Shown piece after piece: positions 31,191 through 46,540 of a stretch of DNA of 64,000 nucleotides. This DNA comes from Sulfurimonas sp. RIFOXYB12_FULL_35_9 (GTDB lineage: Bacteria; Campylobacterota; Campylobacteria; Campylobacterales; Sulfurimonadaceae): the NCBI RefSeq assembly GCF_001829715.1, contig NZ_MICC01000076.1, positions 904-64,903 of the forward strand. The letters run 5' to 3'. The stretch's first letter is position 1, and each line of letters begins with the position of its first letter. The translations under genes and the position numbers were made by a program. The notes beneath the pieces are model-generated. The model was not told the DNA's origin. It searched no databases and worked only from the letters and a program-made list of their open reading frames with translations.

Positions 31191-31197
31191 CTCTAAG

Positions 31198-31213
31198 CTC
31201 CTCTGGAGTTTAG
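31198..31213. repeat. putative att core, left copy (element A)
   Basis: The 16-bp sequence ctcctctggagtttag lies 7 nt after the MCP stop codon and is identical to 35533-35548. Confidence 0.6.
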
Positions 31214-31245
31214 CCAAATGGTCTTGAATACCGTAATTTAGGGCT

Positions 31246-32346
31246 TTAAACTTGTTTTACGTTTTCAATTGTAACCGTATCGTCACAGTAAAGAGAAAAA
31301 TTAAACTCCAAATTTACTTTGTCACCATCTATTACACTCGCATAATATTCTAGTGTTGTACTGGCTTTATTGTGACCGAGTAAACCTGCTAATTCATTTA
31401 TACTCACTATCTTACCTTGAAGCATTAAGGTTGCAAAAGTATGACGGGTCGCATACATTCTATATCTTGGAACACCGCTATCTTTTACAACCTTATTCCA
31501 ATATCGTTTTAACTTATCGGCATCGTCCATATCTCCAAAAATAAAGATATTATTTGTCTGTATCTTTTTGACTTCATCTAAAATCAATTTAGAGTAAGGA
31601 ACTTTTCTAACTGCATTAGCTGTTTTTCCGTTTCCTATAATGCCTTTACTTCTAGTTCTTTTAATATGAATATACCCATCATCTTTAAAATCACCGATTT
31701 GAAGTCCTAAAATTTCACCAACTCTCATTCCCGTATTGAATGCAATCTCTAAATATACTTTCATCACTCCAGAGGCTACACTAAGAAGCTTTCTTACCTC
31801 TTCTTTGGTGTAATATTCAATTTCCTCTTTAGCTTCTTTTTTGAGCTTTATATTAAGTGCTGGATTGAAATCTATTACTGCGTCGTCAACTGCTAATTCA
31901 AAAATCTCATTGATACAACTTTTATAAACTTTGAGTGATGATACTTTCATATCTAATGAAATCAAATATCTCTTAATGTCTAGTCTCGTTATGGTGTCAA
32001 TATTGCGACCGTTAAAAAACTGAATAACTCGTAAAAAATATTCTTTCTTTACTAAGTAACTCCGATTTTTATCTTTCTGCTCTAAAAATATACCACCGTA
32101 ATACTCGAAAGTTTTAGGTTTTTTTTTGTATATTTCACCTGTTGCAATTTTAATATCAAGAGCTGGTATAATCTTGTCTTTTACTATTTTTATGTTTTGA
32201 GGTGTGTCTTTTAACTTAGTGGACTTTTGTTTTCTCACACCATCAACATAATAATTAAGCCATATTACAGAGCCTCTTAAAAAATATGTTGTCATTCCTT
32301 TGTTACCTTTTTTAGTGGTAACAGCCTTACTATGAAACAAAATCAT
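31246..32346 (-). CDS. tyrosine recombinase / phage-type integrase (element A)
   Basis: The catalytic residues are GMRVGEILGL (Arg), ATRHTFATLML (HxxR), LLGHNK (His) and TLEYYA (Tyr). The start may instead be the internal ATG at 32295. Confidence 0.88.
   Translation of the reverse strand: MILFHSKAVTTKKGNKGMTTYFLRGSVIWLNYYVDGVRKQKSTKLKDTPQNIKIVKDKIIPALDIKIATGEIYKKKPKTFEYYGGIFLEQKDKNRSYLVKKEYFLRVIQFFNGRNIDTITRLDIKRYLISLDMKVSSLKVYKSCINEIFELAVDDAVIDFNPALNIKLKKEAKEEIEYYTKEEVRKLLSVASGVMKVYLEIAFNTGMRVGEILGLQIGDFKDDGYIHIKRTRSKGIIGNGKTANAVRKVPYSKLILDEVKKIQTNNIFIFGDMDDADKLKRYWNKVVKDSGVPRYRMYATRHTFATLMLQGKIVSINELAGLLGHNKASTTLEYYASVIDGDKVNLEFNFSLYCDDTVTIENVKQV
31270..31295. promoter_or_regulatory. putative arm-type site, left (element A)
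   Basis: The sequence tgtaaccgtatcgtcacagtaaagag matches 35443-35468 at 23 of 26 positions in the same orientation. Confidence 0.45.
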
Positions 32347-32352
32347 ACCTTT

Positions 32353-32562
32353 TTATATTAAAAATTTATCTAAGTCAATTTCATCAGAAATTGAATTGAT
32401 AGGCTTAATGCTATTATTGAACTCTTCAACATCAATATAAATTCTCTTATATCCATTTATTTTATGAGCTGCAAGGTCTTTATTTTTAATCATGGTTCTA
32501 AGATATGAACTATCTATGCCCATATCTTCGGCTACCTTTTGGATAGTTTGAAATCTACTCAT
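32353..32562 (-). CDS. excisionase-family / AlpA-MerR-like HTH DNA-binding protein
   Basis: The 69-aa protein has the pattern TIQKVAEDMGIDSSYLRTMIKNKDLAAHKINGYKRIYI. It lies directly upstream of the integrase. Confidence 0.65.
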   Translation of the reverse strand: MSRFQTIQKVAEDMGIDSSYLRTMIKNKDLAAHKINGYKRIYIDVEEFNNSIKPINSISDEIDLDKFLI

Positions 32563-32563
32563 T

Positions 32564-33589
32564 TTAGGCTACCAATCTGCCAGCGATATTAACAGTAAAA
32601 TTTTCTTGTCTCAAATAGAGCAATTCTTTATCGTCCCAAATTTCCATAATTTTGTCATTATCAATATTTGAAAGTATTTTAAGACTGTTGCCTTTTCGTA
32701 CTTGCGTAAGACCATAGAGAGAAAAGCGGTGATTTAACATTCTGTAAAGATACATAGGAGCAGTTGACCTACTTCCACAAAATCTGTTTATGCGGTGCTT
32801 GATATACCAAGCATTGAGATATTCATCTTTTGTTGTAATCTCTTTTTTTGACATAGGAAGTGTTTTATTTATATATTTCATTATGTAGCTCGTTGCACTT
32901 CTGATATTTTTTTCAAACTTGTTCGACTTTTGATTAAACAAGTGGTAGAAAGCTTTTTCAACTCGTTCGATGCGTTCTTTTGGAATAAATAGAAGTATAT
33001 GCGTGTGCGGTGTACCGTCTTTGTGTGGCTCATTCACACGATAATACATGCGTTGCATTTTTGTAAGCTCTTTTAATGAGCGGTCTTGTCGTAATTTAGC
33101 CAACATCTTTGTTAATATTTTTACTGACTCTTTAGGCTCTACACCATTATATTTAGGGTTTCTGATTAACTTACCGTCTCTAGTAGCTTTCATTATGTGA
33201 AATTCACTAGGCAGAGTAAGAGTCAAAAATACGGGAGTTAAATTTGCATTCGTTGCCTCACGCTCTAACGTATTAACACGATTTTGGATTTCACCGTAAT
33301 ATCTGTGTGGGCTATGATTTGATGAAACAATACAATCTTTTAAACTGAATTGTTGACCCGTAGAGTTATCTTGTATATAGCTATAATCTAAAAAGATACT
33401 TTGAGCTTTTATCTTTGCTTTTGTCATAGCTAAGTCATCGTTAGTCAGCCCGTATATTCTCGAGATGTCCACAACTTTTTTATAATTAGTCAAGAGGGCT
33501 TTCGCCTCCTCTTTTTTTGTTCGTCCCTCACAAATAAAGGAGGAGGCAGTCGCCCATTTTTCTAACTTCATAAAATTACTCATTATCAT
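32564..33589 (-). CDS. HUH rolling-circle replication initiator (superfamily-I Rep, two-Tyr type)
   Basis: Motif 1 is FLTLTLPSEFH. Motif 2 (HUH) is GTPHTHILLF. Motif 3 is SATSYIMKYINKT, with two Tyr residues spaced as in phiX174 gpA YVAKYVNK. Confidence 0.7.
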   Translation of the reverse strand: MIMSNFMKLEKWATASSFICEGRTKKEEAKALLTNYKKVVDISRIYGLTNDDLAMTKAKIKAQSIFLDYSYIQDNSTGQQFSLKDCIVSSNHSPHRYYGEIQNRVNTLEREATNANLTPVFLTLTLPSEFHIMKATRDGKLIRNPKYNGVEPKESVKILTKMLAKLRQDRSLKELTKMQRMYYRVNEPHKDGTPHTHILLFIPKERIERVEKAFYHLFNQKSNKFEKNIRSATSYIMKYINKTLPMSKKEITTKDEYLNAWYIKHRINRFCGSRSTAPMYLYRMLNHRFSLYGLTQVRKGNSLKILSNIDNDKIMEIWDDKELLYLRQENFTVNIAGRLVA

Positions 33590-33767
33590 CTAATGGAATA
33601 TAATTAAATGAGCCTTTGAGGCAATCTAGCATTACATTGTAATCCGTGAGGTGCAACGAGCCAAAAGCATTTAAACCTAATAATAATCTATGAAATTCAT
33701 CTAGTTTTCTATGCACCGTAGAGCAGTCAATTTCTGTTTTTTTAATATCTTTTTGTGTATCATTCAT
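33576..33767 (-). CDS. hypothetical protein (element A)
   Basis: The 63-aa ORF overlaps the Rep start by 14 nt on the same strand. Confidence 0.35.
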   Translation of the reverse strand: MNDTQKDIKKTEIDCSTVHRKLDEFHRLLLGLNAFGSLHLTDYNVMLDCLKGSFNYIPLDDNE

Positions 33768-33913
33768 CGTTTCTTTCCTTCTAGGCTTGGAACACGGTAG
33801 GGAGTTTTTATCTTGCAGGATGGACTCTCTATGCGTTCTTATTGTTTAAGACTTCAAATAAAACCACTATTAGTGCAAATAGTATGTGTTCATACTCTAT
33901 CATCTAACTTTTT

Positions 33914-34183
33914 TTAAGACACGTAAAAACTTACCGGCGATTTAGAAATAAAACTGCATTGAACGCTTACCTCTTTACCTATTTGAGCTTCATACTGTTT
34001 CACTTGCTCGTCTGGTATGCTGACATCTTGCATATCATGTTTAACAGAGCCGTTAGAGAGTTTTGTTTCAACCAATAGCTGTAATTTATGTTTACCAGTA
34101 CTTACAACCTCGCCCGTCTCTTTATCTTTAAAGTCAGGGTTTTTATACAATGACATTAACTTGCCGTGAATTGATATTTTCAT
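33914..34183 (-). CDS. hypothetical small beta-rich protein (possible OB-fold/ssDNA-binding)
   Basis: The protein is 89 aa with a predicted all-beta pattern. It is translationally coupled to the upstream ORF by a 4-nt overlap. Confidence 0.4.
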   Translation of the reverse strand: MKISIHGKLMSLYKNPDFKDKETGEVVSTGKHKLQLLVETKLSNGSVKHDMQDVSIPDEQVKQYEAQIGKEVSVQCSFISKSPVSFYVS

Positions 34184-34737
34184 TTTTCATCCTTCATATT
34201 AAGATTAAATTTTTCGAGAACAATATCATTATATTTTCCTTGAACAGCATTAAACTCGTCTTTTTTATCCATATTTCTAGCTATTCTACGAATGCATGCA
34301 GTTGCAGAATCCATAAGATTTAAAGCATCAAATTTATACGAAAAATCCATTCCTATATAAACATGATTTGTTTCTTTAAACTCATTTATCGCTAGTGATA
34401 ACTCTAAATAAATCTTCATAAGCTTTTCAAAATCATCTTCTGAAACAGTTTTGGAAAACATTGGATTACTATCGGATATTGGATTTGGCAAGAATATATC
34501 TTCAGAATTAAGAATATATTTTAAATCAGATAATAATTCCTGAACTTTTGGAACGGATGAAAGATAAGACTCAACTAAACTAACTTCCATTAATGAAATA
34601 ATCATGGATGTAACGGTTACATCATCTTTCTTGCATTGATGTTCAAATTCAGCTTTTAAGAGATTTGGGATTTGTAAATTAAATCCAACTTTTTTGTTTT
34701 CGGCACCTTGTGCTTTTTGTAGAGCTTGTTTGTACAT
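34180..34737 (-). CDS. hypothetical protein with N-terminal ribbon-helix-helix-like segment
   Basis: The segment KKVGFNLQIPNLLKAEFEHQCKKDDVTVTSMIISLME has a beta-alpha-alpha pattern. The gene is first in the leftward operon and lies behind GTACAT repeats. Confidence 0.4.
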   Translation of the reverse strand: MYKQALQKAQGAENKKVGFNLQIPNLLKAEFEHQCKKDDVTVTSMIISLMEVSLVESYLSSVPKVQELLSDLKYILNSEDIFLPNPISDSNPMFSKTVSEDDFEKLMKIYLELSLAINEFKETNHVYIGMDFSYKFDALNLMDSATACIRRIARNMDKKDEFNAVQGKYNDIVLEKFNLNMKDEK

Positions 34738-34946
34738 GTGTACTCCTTATATTATACGTACATTAAATATGTACATTAAGGAATTGTATATTTTTTTAGA
34801 GTGAATGTCAAGCTTTAGAAAACTAACGCCTCGATTAGTTGTCATATATTACAACTTTTAAGCTCGTTGTTATCCCTATCGTTCGTTCCTCTCTATGACG
34901 GGAGTTTATTTTTATAAATTGTGTATAATAGTTAGAAAGGAGTACT

Positions 34947-35420
34947 ATGAATTTATCAACCATCCCATCGGATAACTTATATAAGTTTATGTCTATTTTT
35001 GGTTTAGTTTTGATTGTGTCGTGTATGACTGTTTATATGTTAATGCATGATTCGTGGACTGAACAAAAATATAAACTAGAACTAAAAATAGAAGAAATGA
35101 ATGTAAAAACGAAGCACCAGGGTGATAGTATTGAATTATTTGATATTGACTCGTGCAAAGCTAATCCTAAAGATTGTCATGACAATTTTAAAAAAATAGA
35201 AAAAACTCAAAGAGAACAGGAGATTGATAATAGTCAAATTATTGTTCTAAATAAATATCTTAATGAAAGATTAAAAGAAATCACCAGTTATTCTTATGCT
35301 CTCTCTTTTTTAACTTTGTTTGGATTTTTGATATCTACAGCAGGATTCATTCTATGGTATTATAAATTGCAAATCTATCAAGATGCACTGATTATTAAAG
35401 AATATAAGAAACAAATATAA
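34947..35420 (+). CDS. two-TM membrane protein with central coiled coil (hypothetical, element A)
   Basis: The TM segments lie at about residues 14-34 and 117-139. The central segment between them is charged. This is the only + strand gene in the element. Confidence 0.45.
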   Translation: MNLSTIPSDNLYKFMSIFGLVLIVSCMTVYMLMHDSWTEQKYKLELKIEEMNVKTKHQGDSIELFDIDSCKANPKDCHDNFKKIEKTQREQEIDNSQIIVLNKYLNERLKEITSYSYALSFLTLFGFLISTAGFILWYYKLQIYQDALIIKEYKKQI

Positions 35421-35442
35421 CATAATTAGATGTAGATAAAAA

Positions 35443-35468
35443 TGTAACCGTAGTGTCACAGTAAACAG
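35443..35468. promoter_or_regulatory. putative arm-type site, right (element A)
   Basis: The sequence tgtaaccgtagtgtcacagtaaacag matches 31270-31295 at 23 of 26 positions. Confidence 0.45.
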
Positions 35469-35527
35469 CTAAATTCATAGTAAAACTGTTACATTACACC
35501 CCTAAAAGCCCTTGTTTGTGGGGTTTT

Positions 35528-35974
35528 TCAAACTCCTCTGGAGTTTAGACCTTTTGTTACTGCCTCGTTTATCTCTTTTTTATATTCAGGATTTAGCCTT
35601 CCAAGTTCTCTATCAAAGTAAATTATTATGTCTTTATTTGTATGTTTGTGTCTGCATATCGTAAAAAGCAAATCTGCATAAATATCAAAATCAGGATGAG
35701 GTCGCATCCCAAGTTTTTTGTTTATAACTCCGTAATATTTTGTAATCAATTGAACGGCTTCCAATAGTTCGGCGGCATCTGATTTTTTATTTTTTATTAC
35801 ATGTACCAAAGATTTAAAATCAGGCGTTGTTGAAGTGTTACTCTCATATTTTTCTATAGATGGTTTTTTTTTATTTGCATTATCTTTACTAGGTTCTAAA
35901 AATAGAAAAAACATTAAAACTGCTAAGATTACAACCAATCCCATTATAGATTTAATGATTAATTCTGCTTCCAT
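35528..35974 (-). CDS. membrane-anchored hypothetical protein (probable integration target of element A)
   Basis: I preferred the ATG at 35974 over the TTG at 36022. The N-terminal TM helix is IMGLVVILAVLMFFLFL and the C-terminal domain is soluble. The 3' end contains the 16-bp repeat. Confidence 0.5.
   Translation of the reverse strand: MEAELIIKSIMGLVVILAVLMFFLFLEPSKDNANKKKPSIEKYESNTSTTPDFKSLVHVIKNKKSDAAELLEAVQLITKYYGVINKKLGMRPHPDFDIYADLLFTICRHKHTNKDIIIYFDRELGRLNPEYKKEINEAVTKGLNSRGV
35533..35548. repeat. putative att core, right copy (element A)
   Basis: The sequence is identical to 31198-31213. It overlaps the last codons (LNSRGV*) of the ORF at 35528..35974. Confidence 0.6.
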
Positions 35975-36062
35975 TACGCTACTTTTTTTATAGATTATAT
36001 CACACTCAATAAGGCTTACCAAGTAAAAGTTATAAATTTAAAAAATAAATTAAATGGCTAGT

Positions 36063-36083
36063 ATAGTTTAATGTGGTGGACAG
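36063..36083. repeat. att core, distal copy (partial tRNA-Ser 3' end)
   Basis: The sequence is identical to 40309-40329. It diverges from the tRNA immediately afterwards. Confidence 0.8.
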
Positions 36084-36142
36084 TGAGGGATTTCAAGCTT
36101 AGACGCTCAGAAACTCCAGAAATAAGGGTTTCTAGCTGTTTG

Positions 36143-36176
36143 TCGGATAGCGAAAGTATCATAGTTTCTAGCCTTA
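36143..36176. promoter_or_regulatory. pair of arm-type repeats (element B, distal arm)
   Basis: AGTATCATAGT occurs at 36145 and 36166, 21 bp apart. The stretch aaagtatcatagttt is identical to 40226-40240. Confidence 0.55.
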
Positions 36177-36231
36177 GTATCATAGTAAAATTACGCTGAA
36201 TTTTACAAGAATTAAGCAAACAATAAAAATA

Positions 36232-36837
36232 CTATGCAGAAATTCGATTTAAGTTCAATTCAATTTCATTTACAATTTTACTTAATTCTTCTTTGCTGAT
36301 ATCATTTTGCACTTTTTTTTCTGTACCGTTAGAGTGATTTCTTATTCTCTCCAGTTCTCTTCTTTCGTCTTCTTCTTTCTTTATCTGTCTACCCATTGCC
36401 GCAGAATAAAATACATTAAGCTTTAAAGATTTTCTATGTTTCATAATATCTTTCCATGAGCCTTTGCCGAACAAATAAGTGTTAAGTGTGTACACTCCAG
36501 TATTAACACGAATTAACACTTCATTATTAACAAGTTTCGTTAGATTATTATTGACAAAGCTTAAACTCTTATCAAGCTCTTTTGCTATTCTCTCTTTAAT
36601 AGCTTTGTTGATAATTATTTCTTGTTCATAGTTAACATATTTAAGCAATGCGTACATTAAATCGCTACTAATATCTAACTTATAAAAATAAGCGATATCT
36701 TCGATATATAGCTTAATATAACTGGGCTCTACTTCTGCTTTAAATTGTGCTATCTGTTCTCTTTCTACTGTTTCGCCTAACTCATTTATTGTTGTATTTG
36801 TTTCAAGATAAGCTAATGTTCTTTTCATTTTTTCCAT
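36232..36837 (-). CDS. RepL-like winged-helix replication/maintenance protein
   Basis: The region YIKLYIEDIAYFYKLD...LMYALLKYVNYEQEIIINKAIKERIAKELDKSLSFVNNNLTKLVNNEVLIRVNTGVYTLNTYLFGKGSW follows the RepL-type wHTH...G.Y.lN...fgKG pattern. Iterons lie upstream. Confidence 0.5.
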   Translation of the reverse strand: MEKMKRTLAYLETNTTINELGETVEREQIAQFKAEVEPSYIKLYIEDIAYFYKLDISSDLMYALLKYVNYEQEIIINKAIKERIAKELDKSLSFVNNNLTKLVNNEVLIRVNTGVYTLNTYLFGKGSWKDIMKHRKSLKLNVFYSAAMGRQIKKEEDERRELERIRNHSNGTEKKVQNDISKEELSKIVNEIELNLNRISA

Positions 36838-36956
36838 AATTTATTACTCCTGTTGTTGTGTAATGCGATTACTCGCTTTTAAGTAATAATGCTCTAATGA
36901 AAAAAAATCAAAGAAGTGTTAAAAAATGAGCAAAAATAGTAAAAAATAGTAAATCA

Positions 36957-37020
36957 TTACTCAAATAGAGGAAAAACATTCCTCAAACTGAGGAATGTAC
37001 TTACTCAAACTGAGGAATGT
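36957..37020. repeat. three iteron-like repeats at 22-bp spacing (putative origin/operator)
   Basis: CTCAAA(C/T)(T/A)GAGGAA units start at 36960, 36982 and 37004. The last two are identical over 17 bp. The stretch 36976-36998 also forms a perfect 10-bp-arm palindrome, acattcctca-aac-tgaggaatgt. A 2x10-bp A-rich tandem, aaaaatagta, lies at 36932-36951. Confidence 0.7.
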
Positions 37021-37108
37021 TTTTCAATTAAAAAAACCTTTATAAAGCCCTAAAAATAGGGTTAAAAAAGGTGTTAAAAAAAATACAATTCCCTCTATTA
37101 TATTTTAC

Positions 37109-37142
37109 GCGTGATTTATCACGCATTACCGCTTGCGGTAAT
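37109..37142. repeat. two adjacent GC-rich hairpins downstream of the recombinase-like gene
   Basis: The first is gcgtgat-tt-atcacgc at 37109-37124. The second is attaccgc-tt-gcggtaat at 37125-37142. Both are perfect and lie back to back. Confidence 0.6.
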
Positions 37143-37149
37143 CCATATA

Positions 37150-38061
37150 TTAATCAGCTTGAAAAGTCGTATAATGGTCTGTAATATCTAAACGACTATG
37201 CCCTAGCTCTAAGCTAGTTATCCCTTTCGCTTCGTCTTCGCTATGTCCGCCCTCTCTTAGCTCTTCCATACGTTCTTGAGCAAAGTTATATCTAAGCCCG
37301 TGCGTTCCGCTCCACTCTTGCCCTGTTGCTTCGACTGCCTCTTTTAACGCTTCTCTATAATCACTATAATTAGCGTTATAACCATTTTCTATCGCTTCGC
37401 TTACTCTTTGTATCAACTCGTCGCTCAAATGCGTTGTAGTGTAATCTATGCCGCCCTTACTATCATGCACGGTAAGCGTGTTATCTTCGTTTACGCTCCA
37501 CTTGCCGGAGTTTATAGCGTCGTCGGCTCTTAAACCTGCCTCATGTTGAAGCTCGGCACTCAAAGTGTAAGGAGTGTGTTGCATTTCGTCTTTGATTGCT
37601 TGTGCGTCTTCGTAAGCTCTGTTTATATGCTCAGAATGTAAGCTATAAGCCTCTTTTAGCTCTGACTTAATATCTTGTATAGCTTCTCTGCTTAAATCGC
37701 CTATACCGTCCTTTTGTAAGTTGTCAGCGATTTTGTTCATAGTAGACACATAAGTATTAAGAGAACCGCCGCTTATCTCTTGTGCTTTAGCTTCCAAAAA
37801 AGCTTTAGCACTATCTGCATTAATATTATTAGCGACTTTACCCTCGTAATTTTCATTGACAAAATTAACGAACTGCGTCGTAACACTTCGCATGTTTTGA
37901 ACTTCTTTTATGGAGTGGGCTTTATCGCTTACATTGTGTCCATTCGCACCTTTAATGCCACTACTCGCTCTCGCTTCCGATTTACTTTGTCCTATGCCGT
38001 TGGCATTTGACATAACTCTATTTATGATACTATTCGCACTCGCTCGTGAAGCATTAAACAT
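37150..38061 (-). CDS. divergent tyrosine-recombinase-fold protein (candidate relaxase or resolvase-type recombinase)
   Basis: The full R-K-HxxR-H-Y set is present in the right order: AGLRADDA, HDSKGG, THGLRYNFA, LGHSR and ITDHY. An N-terminal SAM-like segment reads AKAFLEAKAQEISGGSLNTYVSTMNKI. There is no arm-binding domain. Confidence 0.6.
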   Translation of the reverse strand: MFNASRASANSIINRVMSNANGIGQSKSEARASSGIKGANGHNVSDKAHSIKEVQNMRSVTTQFVNFVNENYEGKVANNINADSAKAFLEAKAQEISGGSLNTYVSTMNKIADNLQKDGIGDLSREAIQDIKSELKEAYSLHSEHINRAYEDAQAIKDEMQHTPYTLSAELQHEAGLRADDAINSGKWSVNEDNTLTVHDSKGGIDYTTTHLSDELIQRVSEAIENGYNANYSDYREALKEAVEATGQEWSGTHGLRYNFAQERMEELREGGHSEDEAKGITSLELGHSRLDITDHYTTFQAD

Positions 38062-38446
38062 TTAAAACCTCTAAAGCATTTCGTAATGTTTCTCTGCTTA
38101 CTTTTACTTTGAAATGCTCTTTAGCATAGTTGCTTAACTCTTGATATGACGCCCCACGATTTCTAAGCACTTGAAGCTGTGGCAGATAATCTTTATATGT
38201 TTTTATCTTGCTTTGTTGTTTAACTTTCTCTTCTCTCGAGAGTTCAATTTCAGAGAATTCTGAAAATACTTTTAAAGCTTTGTTGGGGCGGTCATTGTTT
38301 TTAGCAGCGTAACGATAAACCAATTCAAGCAATTGATCAAGAACGATATTCATATCATTAACATTAGCAGATAAAGATATTCTATCATTAAGATTTTTAA
38401 TGCCTAATCTTGCACTTGCTTCTAATTCTAAAAATTTTTTACTCAT
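38054..38446 (-). CDS. small C-terminal HTH protein (accessory DNA-binding partner)
   Basis: The 130-aa protein has a Hin/resolvase-like HTH, LRNRGASYQELSNYAKEHFKVKVSRETLRNAL. Its stop overlaps the next gene's start by 8 nt. Confidence 0.5.
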   Translation of the reverse strand: MSKKFLELEASARLGIKNLNDRISLSANVNDMNIVLDQLLELVYRYAAKNNDRPNKALKVFSEFSEIELSREEKVKQQSKIKTYKDYLPQLQVLRNRGASYQELSNYAKEHFKVKVSRETLRNALEVLNV

Positions 38447-38468
38447 TAATAGGTTCTCCTTTAGATTT

Positions 38469-38497
38469 ATCCTTTTATCGCATAGCGATAAAAGGAT
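38469..38497. promoter_or_regulatory. perfect 13-bp-arm palindrome upstream of the HTH/recombinase-like operon (oriT, operator or recombination site candidate)
   Basis: The sequence atccttttatcgc-ata-gcgataaaaggat lies 23 bp upstream of the start at 38446. Confidence 0.6.
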
Positions 38498-38728
38498 GAA
38501 TCTCCTAGAAGAAGATTAGAAAATATCTAACAGTTATTTAAAGGTAATTCAATAAATAAACAAGCTAAAAACACAGAAATGTACTCTGCTATAAAGATAA
38601 CTTTATAGAATTTTTTTAGCTTGGCACCCGTATGCGTTCAGACAGATTTCTTTTTATTGGAAGAATAACCGGGATAAATTTTTTCACAAAAAAACTTTCA
38701 AAAAAGAGGGTGCGAATATGCTTAAAGT

Positions 38729-38944
38729 TTAGCGGACTTTGTCGGCGACTTTGAGGTGCATTTGACTAAAAAAATTTGTAGTAGCTTGTATTGGTTTATT
38801 TTGTATAGTGATTGTCATTTTTGCACCGTTAATATCGTAGAGCGGATAAAGCCCCGACTCAAGGCTATGATAAGTTATATATACTTTTGCAAAAAAAATT
38901 GCAATAAATACAAAAATAGCAAAAAAGAGAAATGCAAACAACAA
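38729..38944 (-). CDS. possible small membrane protein
   Basis: The ORF starts with TTG and has a hydrophobic N-terminus, LFAFLFFAIFVFIAIFF. Support for coding is weak. Confidence 0.25.
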   Translation of the reverse strand: MLFAFLFFAIFVFIAIFFAKVYITYHSLESGLYPLYDINGAKMTITIQNKPIQATTNFFSQMHLKVADKVR

Positions 38945-39021
38945 AGAAAGTTCGTAAACATGGGAGTATTGCGTTAAGAAGCGTTAGCTTCTTGACGCAA
39001 GGTATTCTTGCAATGGGGTTG

Positions 39022-40197
39022 CTATTGTTGATAAGTAACGCTATTAACTATTTCTTGCTTTAAATTTATATTAAAGCCTTTTGCATACGTATCAATGGTT
39101 AACGCCTCGCCTTTGTGTTTTGAATGTCCGACGATCTCTTGAATTATTAATAATTTTTCAGGAAAATTATTAATACATTCAGCGATAAAATTCGCTCTGC
39201 AAGTATGTATAGTTTTTGTGTGTCCTTTCTCAATTACTCTATAAAGCTCTCTTAACATTTTTTTCTGCATAGCTGAACTTGACTTACCCGGGAATAGCGG
39301 AAAGTTTGTATGCTCAATAAGTCCTATAATACTCGTATGTATCGGAACTTTTCTCGTTGCGTTTGTTGATTTTCCAATTTTAACATTGAAATATTTAATG
39401 CCTTCTTCTTCTTTTATGTCTTCATTCGTTAATCTATGCACGTCGTCAATTCTCATTCCAGTATACATAAGAATTTTTAAAGTCGTTGCAACATTTTCTT
39501 CATAATCAAATTGTAAAATATTATTAACTTCTTGGTATGTGAAGTTTTCTTTAACAACCGCTTCTTCTTTCAAATTTTCAAGTGCTTTTACATTATTTTC
39601 TTTAATAAGTTTATAATTAATTGCAAATTCAATAAAAGAATTAATGTACATGAAATGATTATTGATAGTTTTATTCTTAATTTCAGCAGATTTTAAATAA
39701 TTTCTAAAAGCTTTAAAATCGTCAATAGTTATATCGTCAATCGCTTTTTCTTCAAAATATCTTTGAAGTTTTTTAAATGTACCTGCATACGCTTTATAAG
39801 TTGAGTGCTTTACTTTGTCTAGTTCTTTTTTTTCTTGAATAAATTTAGCTTCCAACACAAACCAGTTCAACGGCAAATGATTACGATTATTTGCAAATTC
39901 ATTTAAAGTTTCGTGTGCTTGTTTCATTTTTCGCATTTCATTTTCAATTTCTAAAACTTCTTTATGCGTTTTTAAAGCGTCAAGTCTTCGACGCTCAAAC
40001 TCTTCTTCTGTATCGTACTCAAAAATATATTCATAGTCGCCAAATTTTAATGTATGCAACAGCTCTTCCTTTGACATTATATTTAACAATTTCTTACGCT
40101 GTAAAGCTGTTTTAAGCTGTTGCGTTTGAAGTGATATTCTATATAATTTTTTATTAATCCTTTTACGATAGTAAAAAATATTATCAACTTTATACAA
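39022..40197 (-). CDS. tyrosine recombinase / integrase (element B)
   Basis: The catalytic residues are TGMRIDDVHRL (Arg), KSTNATRKVPIH (Lys), HTCRANFIAECI (HxxR), IVGHSK (His) and TIDTYAKG (Tyr). The gene lies 112 bp from the tRNA-Ser 3' end. Confidence 0.88.
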   Translation of the reverse strand: MYKVDNIFYYRKRINKKLYRISLQTQQLKTALQRKKLLNIMSKEELLHTLKFGDYEYIFEYDTEEEFERRRLDALKTHKEVLEIENEMRKMKQAHETLNEFANNRNHLPLNWFVLEAKFIQEKKELDKVKHSTYKAYAGTFKKLQRYFEEKAIDDITIDDFKAFRNYLKSAEIKNKTINNHFMYINSFIEFAINYKLIKENNVKALENLKEEAVVKENFTYQEVNNILQFDYEENVATTLKILMYTGMRIDDVHRLTNEDIKEEEGIKYFNVKIGKSTNATRKVPIHTSIIGLIEHTNFPLFPGKSSSAMQKKMLRELYRVIEKGHTKTIHTCRANFIAECINNFPEKLLIIQEIVGHSKHKGEALTIDTYAKGFNINLKQEIVNSVTYQQ

Positions 40198-40206
40198 ATT
40201 TTTTGC

Positions 40207-40240
40207 AGTATCATACTTTTTCGCAAAAGTATCATAGTTT
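40207..40240. promoter_or_regulatory. pair of arm-type repeats (element B, tRNA-proximal arm)
   Basis: AGTATCATACT lies at 40207 and AGTATCATAGT at 40228, 21 bp apart. They have the same orientation as the pair at 36145/36166. Confidence 0.55.
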
Positions 40241-40308
40241 GTCTTTATAGCTAATTTAAAATCAGTAGAAGCACCTATTTCACGGGGTTTTGAGGGGTTT
40301 TGTAAATG

Positions 40309-40329
40309 GTGGTGGACAGTGAGGGATTT
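40309..40329. repeat. att core, tRNA copy
   Basis: The 21 bp are identical to 36063-36083. They cover the CCA end, the acceptor 3' strand and part of the T stem. Confidence 0.8.
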
Positions 40330-40397
40330 GAACCCTCGGTAGGTTTCCCTACGCTACCTTTCCAAGGTAGTAGATTAAACCGCTCTCCCAACTGTCC
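40310..40397 (-). tRNA. tRNA-Ser (anticodon GGA), 88 nt with encoded CCA
   Basis: Folded by hand, the acceptor stem is GGACAGT/ACTGTCC. The anticodon stem is CTACC/GGTAG with loop TTGGAAA. The long variable arm is GTAGG-GAAA-CCTAC. The T arm is GAGGG-TTCAAAT-CCCTC, followed by A-CCA. Confidence 0.9.
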
Positions 40398-40484
40398 GGT
40401 GAAGAGCCGAAATTCTACACTTTTAAGACTTAATTTAAGCAATACTTTTATAAAAGTGTCTGGTAAAACACTCTTGATAAATCA

Positions 40485-41129
40485 TTACATCAAATCGCTG
40501 TAGTCATACTTTTGCAGATCTATATATAGTTTTTTGCCTATGGCTATGATTCGAGAGTCATCTTTTGAGTATTCTTTAAACTTCTCTTTTATTTTTGATA
40601 TTTTTTTCTTTGAAAAGTCTCTACTCTTTAAATATTTGTTTAATGACATCAATCTTCTGTTTTCTAAAGGCTCTTCCGAGCTATTCTCTTCTATCTCTGC
40701 TTCGAAAAGTTCCTCTTTATTTTGAGGAGTGCTTAATATAAATTTTGAAGAGATAGCGTTGATAATACTTTTTAGCTGCTCATCTTTTTCTTTATAAATC
40801 TGCTCAATCTTTATTCTCTCTTCTATAAGCATCTTCTCTTTTTGATCTCTTAGAGTTCTGGTTTCGCCCTCAAGAGTTTCAACTTTTTGCTGTAGTTTAA
40901 TATTTTGGTCTTCTAAAAATTTATAATATCTCTCATCTGTATGATTGAGTGATTTTTTGCTATCTGTTTTTCTTAATACTGCTTGAATTTTATCGTCATC
41001 ACCGAGCATAACAAGCTTTATTCCATCCTCAACAACGCTTTGTAGAGAACCTCTTCTTATGCGATTATGAATTGCTTCTCTTGATACGCCAAGTTGCTCT
41101 GCAGCATCTGAGATAGATAGTTTTTGCAT
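40485..41129 (-). CDS. HTH (excisionase/MerR-type) DNA-binding protein with long coiled coil
   Basis: The N-terminus reads LSISDAAEQLGVSREAIHNRIRRGSL. The rest of the protein is a charged heptad-like region. Confidence 0.5.
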   Translation of the reverse strand: MQKLSISDAAEQLGVSREAIHNRIRRGSLQSVVEDGIKLVMLGDDDKIQAVLRKTDSKKSLNHTDERYYKFLEDQNIKLQQKVETLEGETRTLRDQKEKMLIEERIKIEQIYKEKDEQLKSIINAISSKFILSTPQNKEELFEAEIEENSSEEPLENRRLMSLNKYLKSRDFSKKKISKIKEKFKEYSKDDSRIIAIGKKLYIDLQKYDYSDLM

Positions 41130-46510: not shown

Positions 46511-46540
46511 ATAATTCCTTCATTGATATGAAGGAATTAT
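46511..46540 (-). terminator. 12-bp-stem hairpin between flgE and purT, overlapping the purT ribosome-binding site
   Basis: The sequence ataattccttca-ttgata-tgaaggaattat is a perfect inverted repeat. On the minus strand, the AAGGA 6 nt before the purT ATG lies in the 3' arm. Confidence 0.5.

Follow-up and report, generated by a model that had tools for sequence, protein, structure and literature searches.

A candidate MpsA-like mobilisation module with a conserved hairpin in a 4.26-kb integrative element of Sulfurimonas

Why does an element of only four genes, one of which encodes a conventional integrase, carry a second protein of the tyrosine-recombinase (TR) type? The question is posed by a 4.26-kb element in Sulfurimonas sp. 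RIFOXYB12_FULL_35_9, bounded by 24-bp repeats of the 3' end of a tRNA-Ser(GGA) gene and located in a 64,000-nt stretch of contig NZ_MICC01000076.1 (positions 904 to 64,903), hereafter the window, whose coordinates are used throughout. A preliminary description of this DNA had offered three roles for the TR-like gene and its small neighbour: a multimer-resolution system, a shufflon-type system, or a relaxase acting on a 29-bp palindrome as the origin of transfer (oriT). Of the three, the relaxase is the best supported, through a link to MpsA. On balance, the comparisons favour reading the region as an MpsA-like (MOB_M-type) mobilisation module of an integrative, probably self-replicating, mobilizable element. 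The two genes and the candidate site of this module are as follows.

37150..38061, minus strand: TR-like protein gene, 303 aa, an MpsA-like putative relaxase or site-specific nickase
38054..38446, minus strand: small gene, 130 aa, with a probable C-terminal helix-turn-helix (HTH), a putative accessory or regulatory DNA-binding protein
38969..39000, minus strand: mismatched hairpin or inverted repeat TTGCGTCAAGAAGC-taac-GCTTCTTAACGCAA, the best candidate for an oriT core or cis site

Both reading frames lie where the preliminary description had placed them and share an 8-nt overlap. All the motifs it had quoted for a catalytic hexad were found in the 303-aa protein, and none of its six residues (R178, K202, H254, R257, H288 and Y297) varies among 41 homologues of 47-73% identity. 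The AlphaFold model of the protein, built on the 41-sequence alignment, has a pLDDT of 91.4. Foldseek aligned ~300 columns of the model to the known recombinases XerA, IntI4, XerH, lambda Int (75-356) and Cre (E = 1e-8 to 1e-6). Because the model is confident and the alignments are of this length, the modelled protein is assigned a two-domain (core-binding and catalytic) tyrosine-recombinase fold without an arm-binding domain. The earlier term 'arm-less' is correct as far as the arm-binding domain is concerned and needs amendment at the N-terminus, where a core-binding-type helical domain is present in the Foldseek alignments. The N-terminus described as Ser/Ala/Asn-rich is likewise not low-complexity filler but a conserved extension of ~50 residues, modelled at pLDDT 80-95, in which S26, K27, H49, S50, R58 and Q63 are invariant among the 41 homologues.

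The sequence profiles place the protein at the edge of the recombinase models. The Pfam match to Phage_integrase (PF00589) is sub-threshold (E = 0.0015, 18.8 bits against a cut-off of 27.1) and a SAM-like match at residues 46-110 is weak; the family member P0062 passes PF00589 at 29.1 bits, and some other members pass too. NCBIfam, including its Xer models, and PHROGs gave no informative match for the 303-aa or the 130-aa protein, and no dedicated MpsA, MobK or TcpM model of NCBIfam responded. Sequence searches of the solved structures (PDB) with the 303-aa protein and with the family profile returned zero matches. The protein is also unlike the two integrases in the window (BLASTP E = 0.06 and 0.05), as had been noted, except that the second of them (31246..32346), earlier assigned to the same island, actually lies in a separate 4.3-kb element. 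The 303-aa protein thus has the two-domain fold and the catalytic hexad in common with simple tyrosine recombinases (XerA, XerH, Cre and IntI), but differs from them in the extra N-terminal extension of ~50 residues, in the lack of a profile match to solved structures and in the absence of the segment that follows the catalytic Tyr.

In the family alignment only 1-8 residues follow this Tyr (one outlier), and the Xer/Cre-type C-terminal segment is missing from the family. The same holds for the cluster representatives, 142 of 146 of which have at most eight residues past the Tyr (median 2). The corresponding tail has 2 residues in MpsA, 7 in TcpM and ~20 in the ordinary integrases compared. 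In Cre, lambda Int and XerD, the post-Tyr segment makes the cyclic protomer contacts of the recombination tetramer. Judged from its sequence, the short tail is more in keeping with a nickase than with a recombinase.

The tyrosine-recombinase-like relaxases described in the literature number three, namely TcpM of Clostridium perfringens pCW3, MobK of the Klebsiella plasmid pIGRK and MpsA of Salmonella Genomic Island 1 (SGI1) (PMC8152469, PMC9299015). A preprint groups them as MOB_M, which it reports to be mostly chromosomal and in 96% of cases near an integrase, and its MOB_M-profile analysis covers six Pseudomonadota species only (bioRxiv 10.64898/2026.01.13.699239). The family profile of the 303-aa protein was aligned by hhalign with the single sequences of MpsA, TcpM, MobK and three ordinary integrases. 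The match to MpsA reaches 95.3% (E = 2e-8, 236 columns) and that to TcpM 92.8% (95.8% against a TcpM family profile), whereas the three ordinary integrases reach 28.6, 7.5 and 4.9%. When the 303-aa protein is compared with MpsA by BLASTP, the E-value is 1e-7, and the segment between the first Arg and the Tyr is 28% identical. The signatures HG.R..(F/Y)AQ.R and E(L/M)GH.R.(D/E)(I/V)T..Y(L), the latter followed by the C-terminus, are common to the multi-phylum family and MpsA. The hexad aligns with the equivalent residues of MpsA and TcpM, and residues 32-111 of MpsA align with the N-terminal core-binding-type domain of the family. MobK, the relaxase that the preliminary description had named, shows no specific relationship: hhalign gives 0.85% and BLASTP E = 1.5, and the RepL proteins of pIGRK and of the element are not detectably similar. 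The specific link is instead to MpsA of SGI1 and, less specifically, to TcpM of pCW3. By these sequence comparisons, MpsA is the closest characterised relative.

The likeness to MpsA and SGI1 (Kiss et al. 2019, PMC6414798; PMC9299015) includes the arrangement of the genes. In both systems an integrative mobilizable element has a gene for a TR-type protein alongside that for a separate conventional integrase, the similarity covers the catalytic domain and part of the N-terminal domain, and the Tyr lies at the extreme C-terminus. Both have a small second protein co-transcribed with the enzyme, and both have a cis site with inverted repeats upstream of the operon and a sizeable non-coding stretch between site and gene, although the site of the Sulfurimonas element is a candidate. 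An oriT upstream of the enzyme gene is described for TcpM and MobK as well as for MpsA (PMC9299015). However, the identity to MpsA is only ~28% in the catalytic domain, and in MpsA the interval from HxxR to GH contains ~37 inserted residues. The SGI1 oriT is GC-rich and shows no similarity to the hairpin of the element, which is ten times smaller than SGI1, has its own RepL replicon and belongs to a different host phylum, Campylobacterota. Between oriT and enzyme gene SGI1 has the sgm-sRNA. In the element, a conserved non-coding 0.5 kb lies between hairpin and operon, with no Rfam match; over 35900-40600, the tRNA was the sole Rfam family matched.

TcpM, the MOB_M prototype, resembles the 303-aa protein in its tyrosine-recombinase catalytic domain, in its short tail of 7 residues after the Tyr and in the spacing of 34 residues from the His of HxxR to the second His (H216-H250 in TcpM, H254-H288 here). 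Unlike the 303-aa protein, TcpM passes the Pfam Phage_integrase and PHROG integrase models, and its gene sits in a conjugation locus adjoining that of its coupling protein. MobK differs in having 63 residues past the Tyr and no partner gene (PMC8152469).

The hairpin at 38969-39000 has the consensus CCGTCAAGAAGC-N2-5-GCTTCTT(A/T)ACGG. It is found upstream of the small gene by 70-830 nt and in constant orientation in at least 14 lineages, whose TR-like proteins are as low as 44% identical to the 303-aa protein. In a 14-copy alignment, 8 of the 15 stem pairs have changed on both sides and 88.6% of the cells pair, compared with 38-43% in slid registers; this covariation score was reached in 0 of 500 shuffles. 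The loop is 2-6 nt long, and the outer stem positions vary yet stay complementary. The two arms differ in every copy, because a C faces an A or T at stem position 7 throughout. Folded as single-stranded DNA (ssDNA), the hairpin has an energy of -11.6 to -13.9 kcal/mol (z about -6.4). A scan of metagenomes with the hairpin pattern only retrieved 10 loci; all seven with enough flank lead to the small and TR-like genes on the same strand, and the remaining three are cut by a contig end. A transcription terminator was considered for the hairpin and rejected, as the operon strand has no T-run and the other strand has none that is conserved in the relatives. From its conservation, its covariation and its exclusive linkage to the module, the hairpin is the best candidate for the site at which the TR-like protein would act, and a better oriT candidate than the palindrome. 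It is accompanied by one further feature.

38880..38968 (approximate limits), minus strand: T-rich stretch with repeated TTGCA(A) motifs beside the hairpin

TTGCAA/TTGCCA motifs and phased T-tracts are present on both sides of the hairpin in most lineages (including L006, L009, L013, L056 and L060), and the non-coding stretch 38880-38968 is 92% identical between the window and L060. These flanks are possible accessory-protein or bending sites.

Homologues of the 303-aa protein are numerous. A word index gave 164 matches (Sulfurimonas, Aliarcobacter, Arcobacter and Campylobacter), many of them from contigs just a few kb long, and a full profile scan gave 1241 clusters (50% identity, E <= 1e-3) in several phyla. 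Every Campylobacterota locus with sufficient upstream sequence has a gene of 124-165 aa directly upstream of the TR-like gene, usually overlapping it. The pair is joined with differing integrases of 344 to 629 aa, and at least five integrase/tRNA targets were observed: tRNA-Ser(GGA), tRNA-Asn, tRNA-Leu, tRNA-Ser(TGA) and tRNA-Ser(GCT). In Aliarcobacter butzleri and A. thereius, the whole island consists of the tRNA, the integrase, 1.6 kb free of open reading frames (ORFs), the small gene and the TR-like gene, rep being absent. The module is also present on plasmid pCORI-2 of Campylobacter sp., and homologues of ~25% identity are found on small Vibrio, Aeromonas and Klebsiella plasmids. In the two such plasmids inspected, one from Vibrio and one from Klebsiella, a 73-77-aa gene overlaps the TR-like gene by 8 nt, as in the window. 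Of the plasmids with a homologue, 122 of 131 are typed without a known relaxase (MOB-suite types as given by PLSDB). The contexts of distant homologues on larger Pseudodesulfovibrio, Trichlorobacter and Bacillus plasmids were uninformative. Small gene, TR-like gene and hairpin are shown by these loci to travel as one module, independent of the integrase.

Some of the relatives carry additional genes. On small Klebsiella and Vibrio plasmids (L004:873-1571 and L005:3875-4666), a third gene, overlapping and of 232-263 aa, comes after the pair; it has no Pfam match and no counterpart in the window, and some Vibrio plasmids of this third-gene type carry qnrVC. In L065, an ArdA anti-restriction gene (L065:11110-11649) directly adjoins the HTH/TR-like pair on an island whose cargo comprises a type I restriction-modification system and a SIR2-domain protein, with the integrase at the end. 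ArdA is typical of conjugatively transferred DNA. In L063 (4122-5363 and 12935-14695), an island made up of integrase, Sel1-repeat cargo, HTH gene and TR-like gene appears to split a mutS-like gene, with the MutS_I/III domains on one side and MutS_V and HNH on the other.

For the small protein, the 'Hin-like HTH' of the preliminary description reduces to a probable C-terminal HTH. The Pfam HTH matches of the 130-aa protein and its positional orthologues are weak (E = 0.002-0.06), the model has an overall pLDDT of 68 with a C-terminal three-helix unit of moderate confidence (pLDDT 78-88), and Foldseek found nothing with this poor model. An excisionase-type (HTH_17) Pfam match was not seen. The positional orthologues were drawn from the loci because a homologue search with the 130-aa protein gave only 4 close matches, and the small protein is the fastest-evolving part of the module. 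Its C-terminal motif aligns with the 73-77-aa proteins of the Vibrio and Klebsiella plasmids. Two features precede the small gene.

38469..38497, no strand assigned: 29-bp perfect palindrome, a probable operator or element of the 5' untranslated region
38524..38552, minus strand: promoter-like TTGAAT-17 nt-TAGATA, preceded by TG, assigned by eye as a putative promoter of the HTH/TR-like operon

The palindrome, ATCCTTTTATCGC-tat-GCGATAAAAGGAT on the coding strand (the spacer reads ata on the plus strand), is present as described, with 13-bp perfect arms and a 3-nt spacer. It ends 8 nt ahead of an AGGAG ribosome-binding site and 22 nt ahead of the ATG, can be extended to 19-nt arms with one mismatch (38463-38503), and has a folding energy of -14.8 kcal/mol as ssDNA (z = -7.8). 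In the window, 3 inverted repeats are perfect over arms of 13 bp or more, compared with 0 in 60 first-order Markov simulations. The other two are located at 39145-39175, within the integrase gene near its 3' end, and at 46511-46540, where the repeat lies between two genes (46509/46553) and is terminator-like. In L060 and L061, two relatives of 95% identity, the inverted repeat is preserved through a compensatory change of CC/GG to TT/AA. At this position upstream of the small gene, L014/L015 (17-bp arms), L006, L009 and L031 have perfect palindromes of unrelated sequence. The proposal that the palindrome is the oriT is not supported by these comparisons, as its sequence is not conserved between lineages and the conserved cis element is a different one, the hairpin at 38969-39000. 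Since the palindromes are lineage-specific at a fixed position and the small protein evolves fast, the 29-bp palindrome is probably an operator bound by the small protein; alternatively, it may be a hairpin of the 5' untranslated region. The promoter-like block is identical in L060 and L061 and was not listed by a consensus promoter scan. A 71-aa ORF at 38729..38944 was ruled out as a gene by a 2-nt indel that causes a frameshift in L060.

The remaining features of the element define its borders and its putative replicon.

40310-40397, minus strand: tRNA-Ser(GGA) gene (ARAGORN)
40309..40332, no strand assigned: attL, the 24-bp repeat from the tRNA-Ser(GGA) 3' end (ARAGORN; direct-repeat search)
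36073..36096, no strand assigned: attR, the tRNA-Ser 3'-end copy closing the 4.26-kb element (direct-repeat search)
39022..40197, minus strand: conventional integrase, 391 aa, adjoining attL, with SAM-like core-binding and catalytic domains
36232..36837, minus strand: RepL-family replication protein, 201 aa (Pfam RepL)
about 36957..37021, minus strand: three 22-bp iteron-like direct repeats (..CATTCCTCAGTTTGAG..), upstream of rep (repeat family D6; read from the sequence)

The attL and attR copies are identical at 23 of 24 positions, and a comparable match occurred in 0 of 100 shuffles. The 391-aa integrase matches Pfam Phage_int_SAM_5 (E = 9e-10), a PHROG integrase (8.8e-32) and Xer-type models of NCBIfam. 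The RepL-family gene matches Pfam RepL (E = 1.1e-5, 25.4 bits against a cut-off of 20.3), and the protein identical to the 201-aa ORF is named replication/maintenance protein RepL by NCBI. The iteron-like repeats upstream of rep are probably the replication origin (oriV). The gene set consists of the conventional integrase, the small gene, the TR-like gene and the RepL-like gene, none of which encodes type IV secretion. With an integrase adjoining a tRNA, flanking direct repeats and, by Pfam, no conjugation apparatus of its own, the element has the properties of an integrative mobilizable element. The current annotations in this genome, retrieved by exact-sequence look-up, are 'integrase domain-containing protein', 'hypothetical protein' and 'RepL'.

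Several shorter repeats were observed in the same region. GTATCATA(GT) motif repeats are present at 36150-36190 and 40205-40245, just within both element ends, and among them near both ends is an 18-bp repeat (GCGAAAGTATCATAGTTT / GCAAAAGTATCATAGTTT); the GTATCATA(GT) repeats are probably arm-type binding sites of the conventional integrase. Immediately past the TR-like stop codon, two short hairpins at 37105-37145 (TTACCGC-aag-CGGTAA and GCGTGAT-aa-ATCACGC) are probably terminators between the TR-like gene and the iteron/rep unit. The separate element of ~4.3 kb mentioned above lies at 31195-35548, bounded by 19-bp direct repeats (AAGCTCCTCTGGAGTTTAG / AAACTCCTCTGGAGTTTAG). It encodes a 366-aa integrase (31246..32346), an HUH rolling-circle Rep (32564..33589; Phage_GPA/REP_ORF2-G2P, Pfam 1e-24) and small ORFs without matches. 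It is missing from the close relatives of the 4.26-kb element, in which a 148-aa gene and, next to it, the chemoreceptor gene come after RepL.

If the module mobilises DNA, its action could be as follows. The conventional integrase would excise the element, and the TR-like protein, helped by the small DNA-binding protein, would bind the hairpin region 38969-39000. Cleavage of one strand by Tyr297, at the hairpin or close to it, would then link protein and DNA covalently, and the coupling protein and type IV secretion system of a co-resident conjugative element, an assumed helper, would export this intermediate. In the recipient, the circle would be re-established by the TR-like enzyme or the RepL origin and reinserted by the integrase. 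The small protein would autoregulate the operon at the 29-bp palindrome, a predicted operator that follows the promoter-like site and precedes the ribosome-binding site.

Relaxosome operons usually have a small DNA-binding gene that overlaps the enzyme gene, and a cis site upstream. The mobilisation reading is favoured because the module has this layout, because its enzyme combines a tyrosine-recombinase fold and invariant hexad with a specific kinship to MpsA and a Tyr 1-8 residues from the C-terminus, and because the covarying hairpin is exclusively linked to the module. It is favoured further because the module joins different integrases and occurs in rep-less islands and small plasmids, because so many of the homologue-bearing plasmids (122/131) are typed without a known relaxase, because ArdA adjoins the module in one relative, and because MOB_M relaxases are reported to be mostly chromosomal and near an integrase.

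Some observations weigh against this reading. The three known TR-like relaxases are described as being without a core-binding domain (PMC8152469), whereas the 303-aa protein retains the full core-binding and catalytic architecture, as real recombinases do. The partner encoded in the element is an upstream, probable HTH protein with an 8-nt gene overlap, whereas that of SGI1 is the downstream, SAM-like MpsB. No type IV secretion or coupling gene was found beside the family members examined or among the Pfam-scanned ORFs of the window, the window scan not being exhaustive. The two arms of the hairpin could equally be read as a recombinase core site. Finally, when eight ordinary integrases were combined into a control profile, its match to the family profile was 94.7%, near the 95.8% of the TcpM family; therefore hhalign probabilities alone do not separate relaxase-type from ordinary recombinases. 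With this control about as good, the TcpM kinship was downgraded as a specific signal, and only the MpsA link is treated as specific, because it is also seen in plain BLASTP and in the shared motifs.

The last two observations bear on the alternative that survives best, site-specific recombination, which we consider possible though unlikely. In this case the TR-like protein and the small protein would recombine two 38969-39000 sites and resolve multimers or cointegrates, as in Cre/loxP or Xer/cer, with the excised RepL-replicating circle or the small plasmids as substrates. The complete hexad, the Xer/Cre-like two-domain fold and the 94.7% match of the ordinary-integrase profile are what such an enzyme would have. 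A single site per replicon, whose two nearly identical arms enclose a short centre (GC-N2-5-GC), would suit it, as would the many homologues on small multicopy plasmids and the rep gene and iterons of the 4.26-kb element. However, the length of the centre varies and the outer arms covary: an outer stem that changes but stays complementary around a loop of 2-6 nt fits base pairing better than a fixed crossover. The module is also found in integrated elements that have no replication gene, hardly any residues follow the catalytic Tyr, neither an Xer match in NCBIfam nor a PHROG integrase match was obtained, and the closest characterised relative is a mobilisation protein.

The covariation of the hairpin is equally relevant to a second alternative, in which the protein is an ssDNA-processing enzyme rather than a usual relaxase. 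It would recognise the folded hairpin like an integron integrase on attC and recombine or close the single strand, which could serve, for instance, to recircularise the element or convert it once it has entered or while it is replicating. Pairing kept by compensatory change, together with a conserved mismatch that marks one strand, agrees with this idea, and the best structural matches include IntI4, an enzyme that recombines attC in its folded form. The Foldseek ranking of Xer, IntI, lambda Int and Cre is, however, not discriminating, and no partner site was identified. Moreover, this alternative overlaps heavily with the relaxase model, because the termination of transfer also acts on a hairpin; as a separate explanation we hold it to be improbable.

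A second xis-int pair, in which an Int with the small protein as its Xis-like partner would insert the element or the plasmids into a different chromosomal site, is highly improbable. In xis-int pairs, too, a small DNA-binding gene overlaps an integrase-like gene, but the ends of the element match the tRNA beside the conventional integrase, no second repeat pair related to the hairpin or the palindrome was found within the element, and the module stays constant while integrase and target change. The small protein is also without the HTH_17 match of excisionases. The shufflon-type system or DNA-inversion switch, for which merely a recombinase-like gene and inverted repeats are present, can practically be dismissed because palindrome and hairpin are each single-copy per element, with no invertible segment and no alternative gene ends.

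Under the mobilisation reading, the module is of a known kind, the recombinase-type relaxases on integrative mobilizable elements. The branch appears to differ from the described ones in keeping a core-binding-type domain, in its conserved N-terminal extension, in an upstream HTH-type partner that replaces MpsB, and in a distinct and sharply defined hairpin. Its setting is islands of 3-5 kb and small plasmids in Campylobacterota and several other phyla. No description of the module family was found in the searchable literature. Only TcpM, MobK and MpsA have been studied as tyrosine-recombinase-like relaxases (PMC6414798, PMC8152469). An enzyme of this type attaches to the 3' end. The SGI1 study failed to map the nick site for MpsA (PMC6414798). 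The chemistry could conveniently be studied on the hairpin, which is short and has a conserved mismatch.

More speculatively, and with little weight at present, the family might be a widespread, unrecognised branch of recombinase-type relaxases whose target is a folded ssDNA hairpin bearing a conserved mismatch, recognised in a manner similar to attC by integron integrases. If so, conjugative DNA processing would involve a 3'-phosphotyrosyl intermediate formed at a structured site in ssDNA, the hairpin would offer the first tractable site for mapping the nick of a MOB_M-type enzyme, and the islands of 3-5 kb composed of int, small gene, TR-like gene and hairpin would be the smallest self-sufficient mobilizable islands known. 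The family is large, yet its members are annotated only as 'integrase domain-containing' or 'hypothetical', and most of the carrier plasmids are typed as non-mobilizable (MOB-suite via PLSDB). Should the module prove to mobilise DNA, transmissibility would extend to many small plasmids and tiny genomic islands that are at present classed as non-transmissible, among them the Vibrio qnrVC plasmids, the small Klebsiella plasmids and the islands of Campylobacterota.

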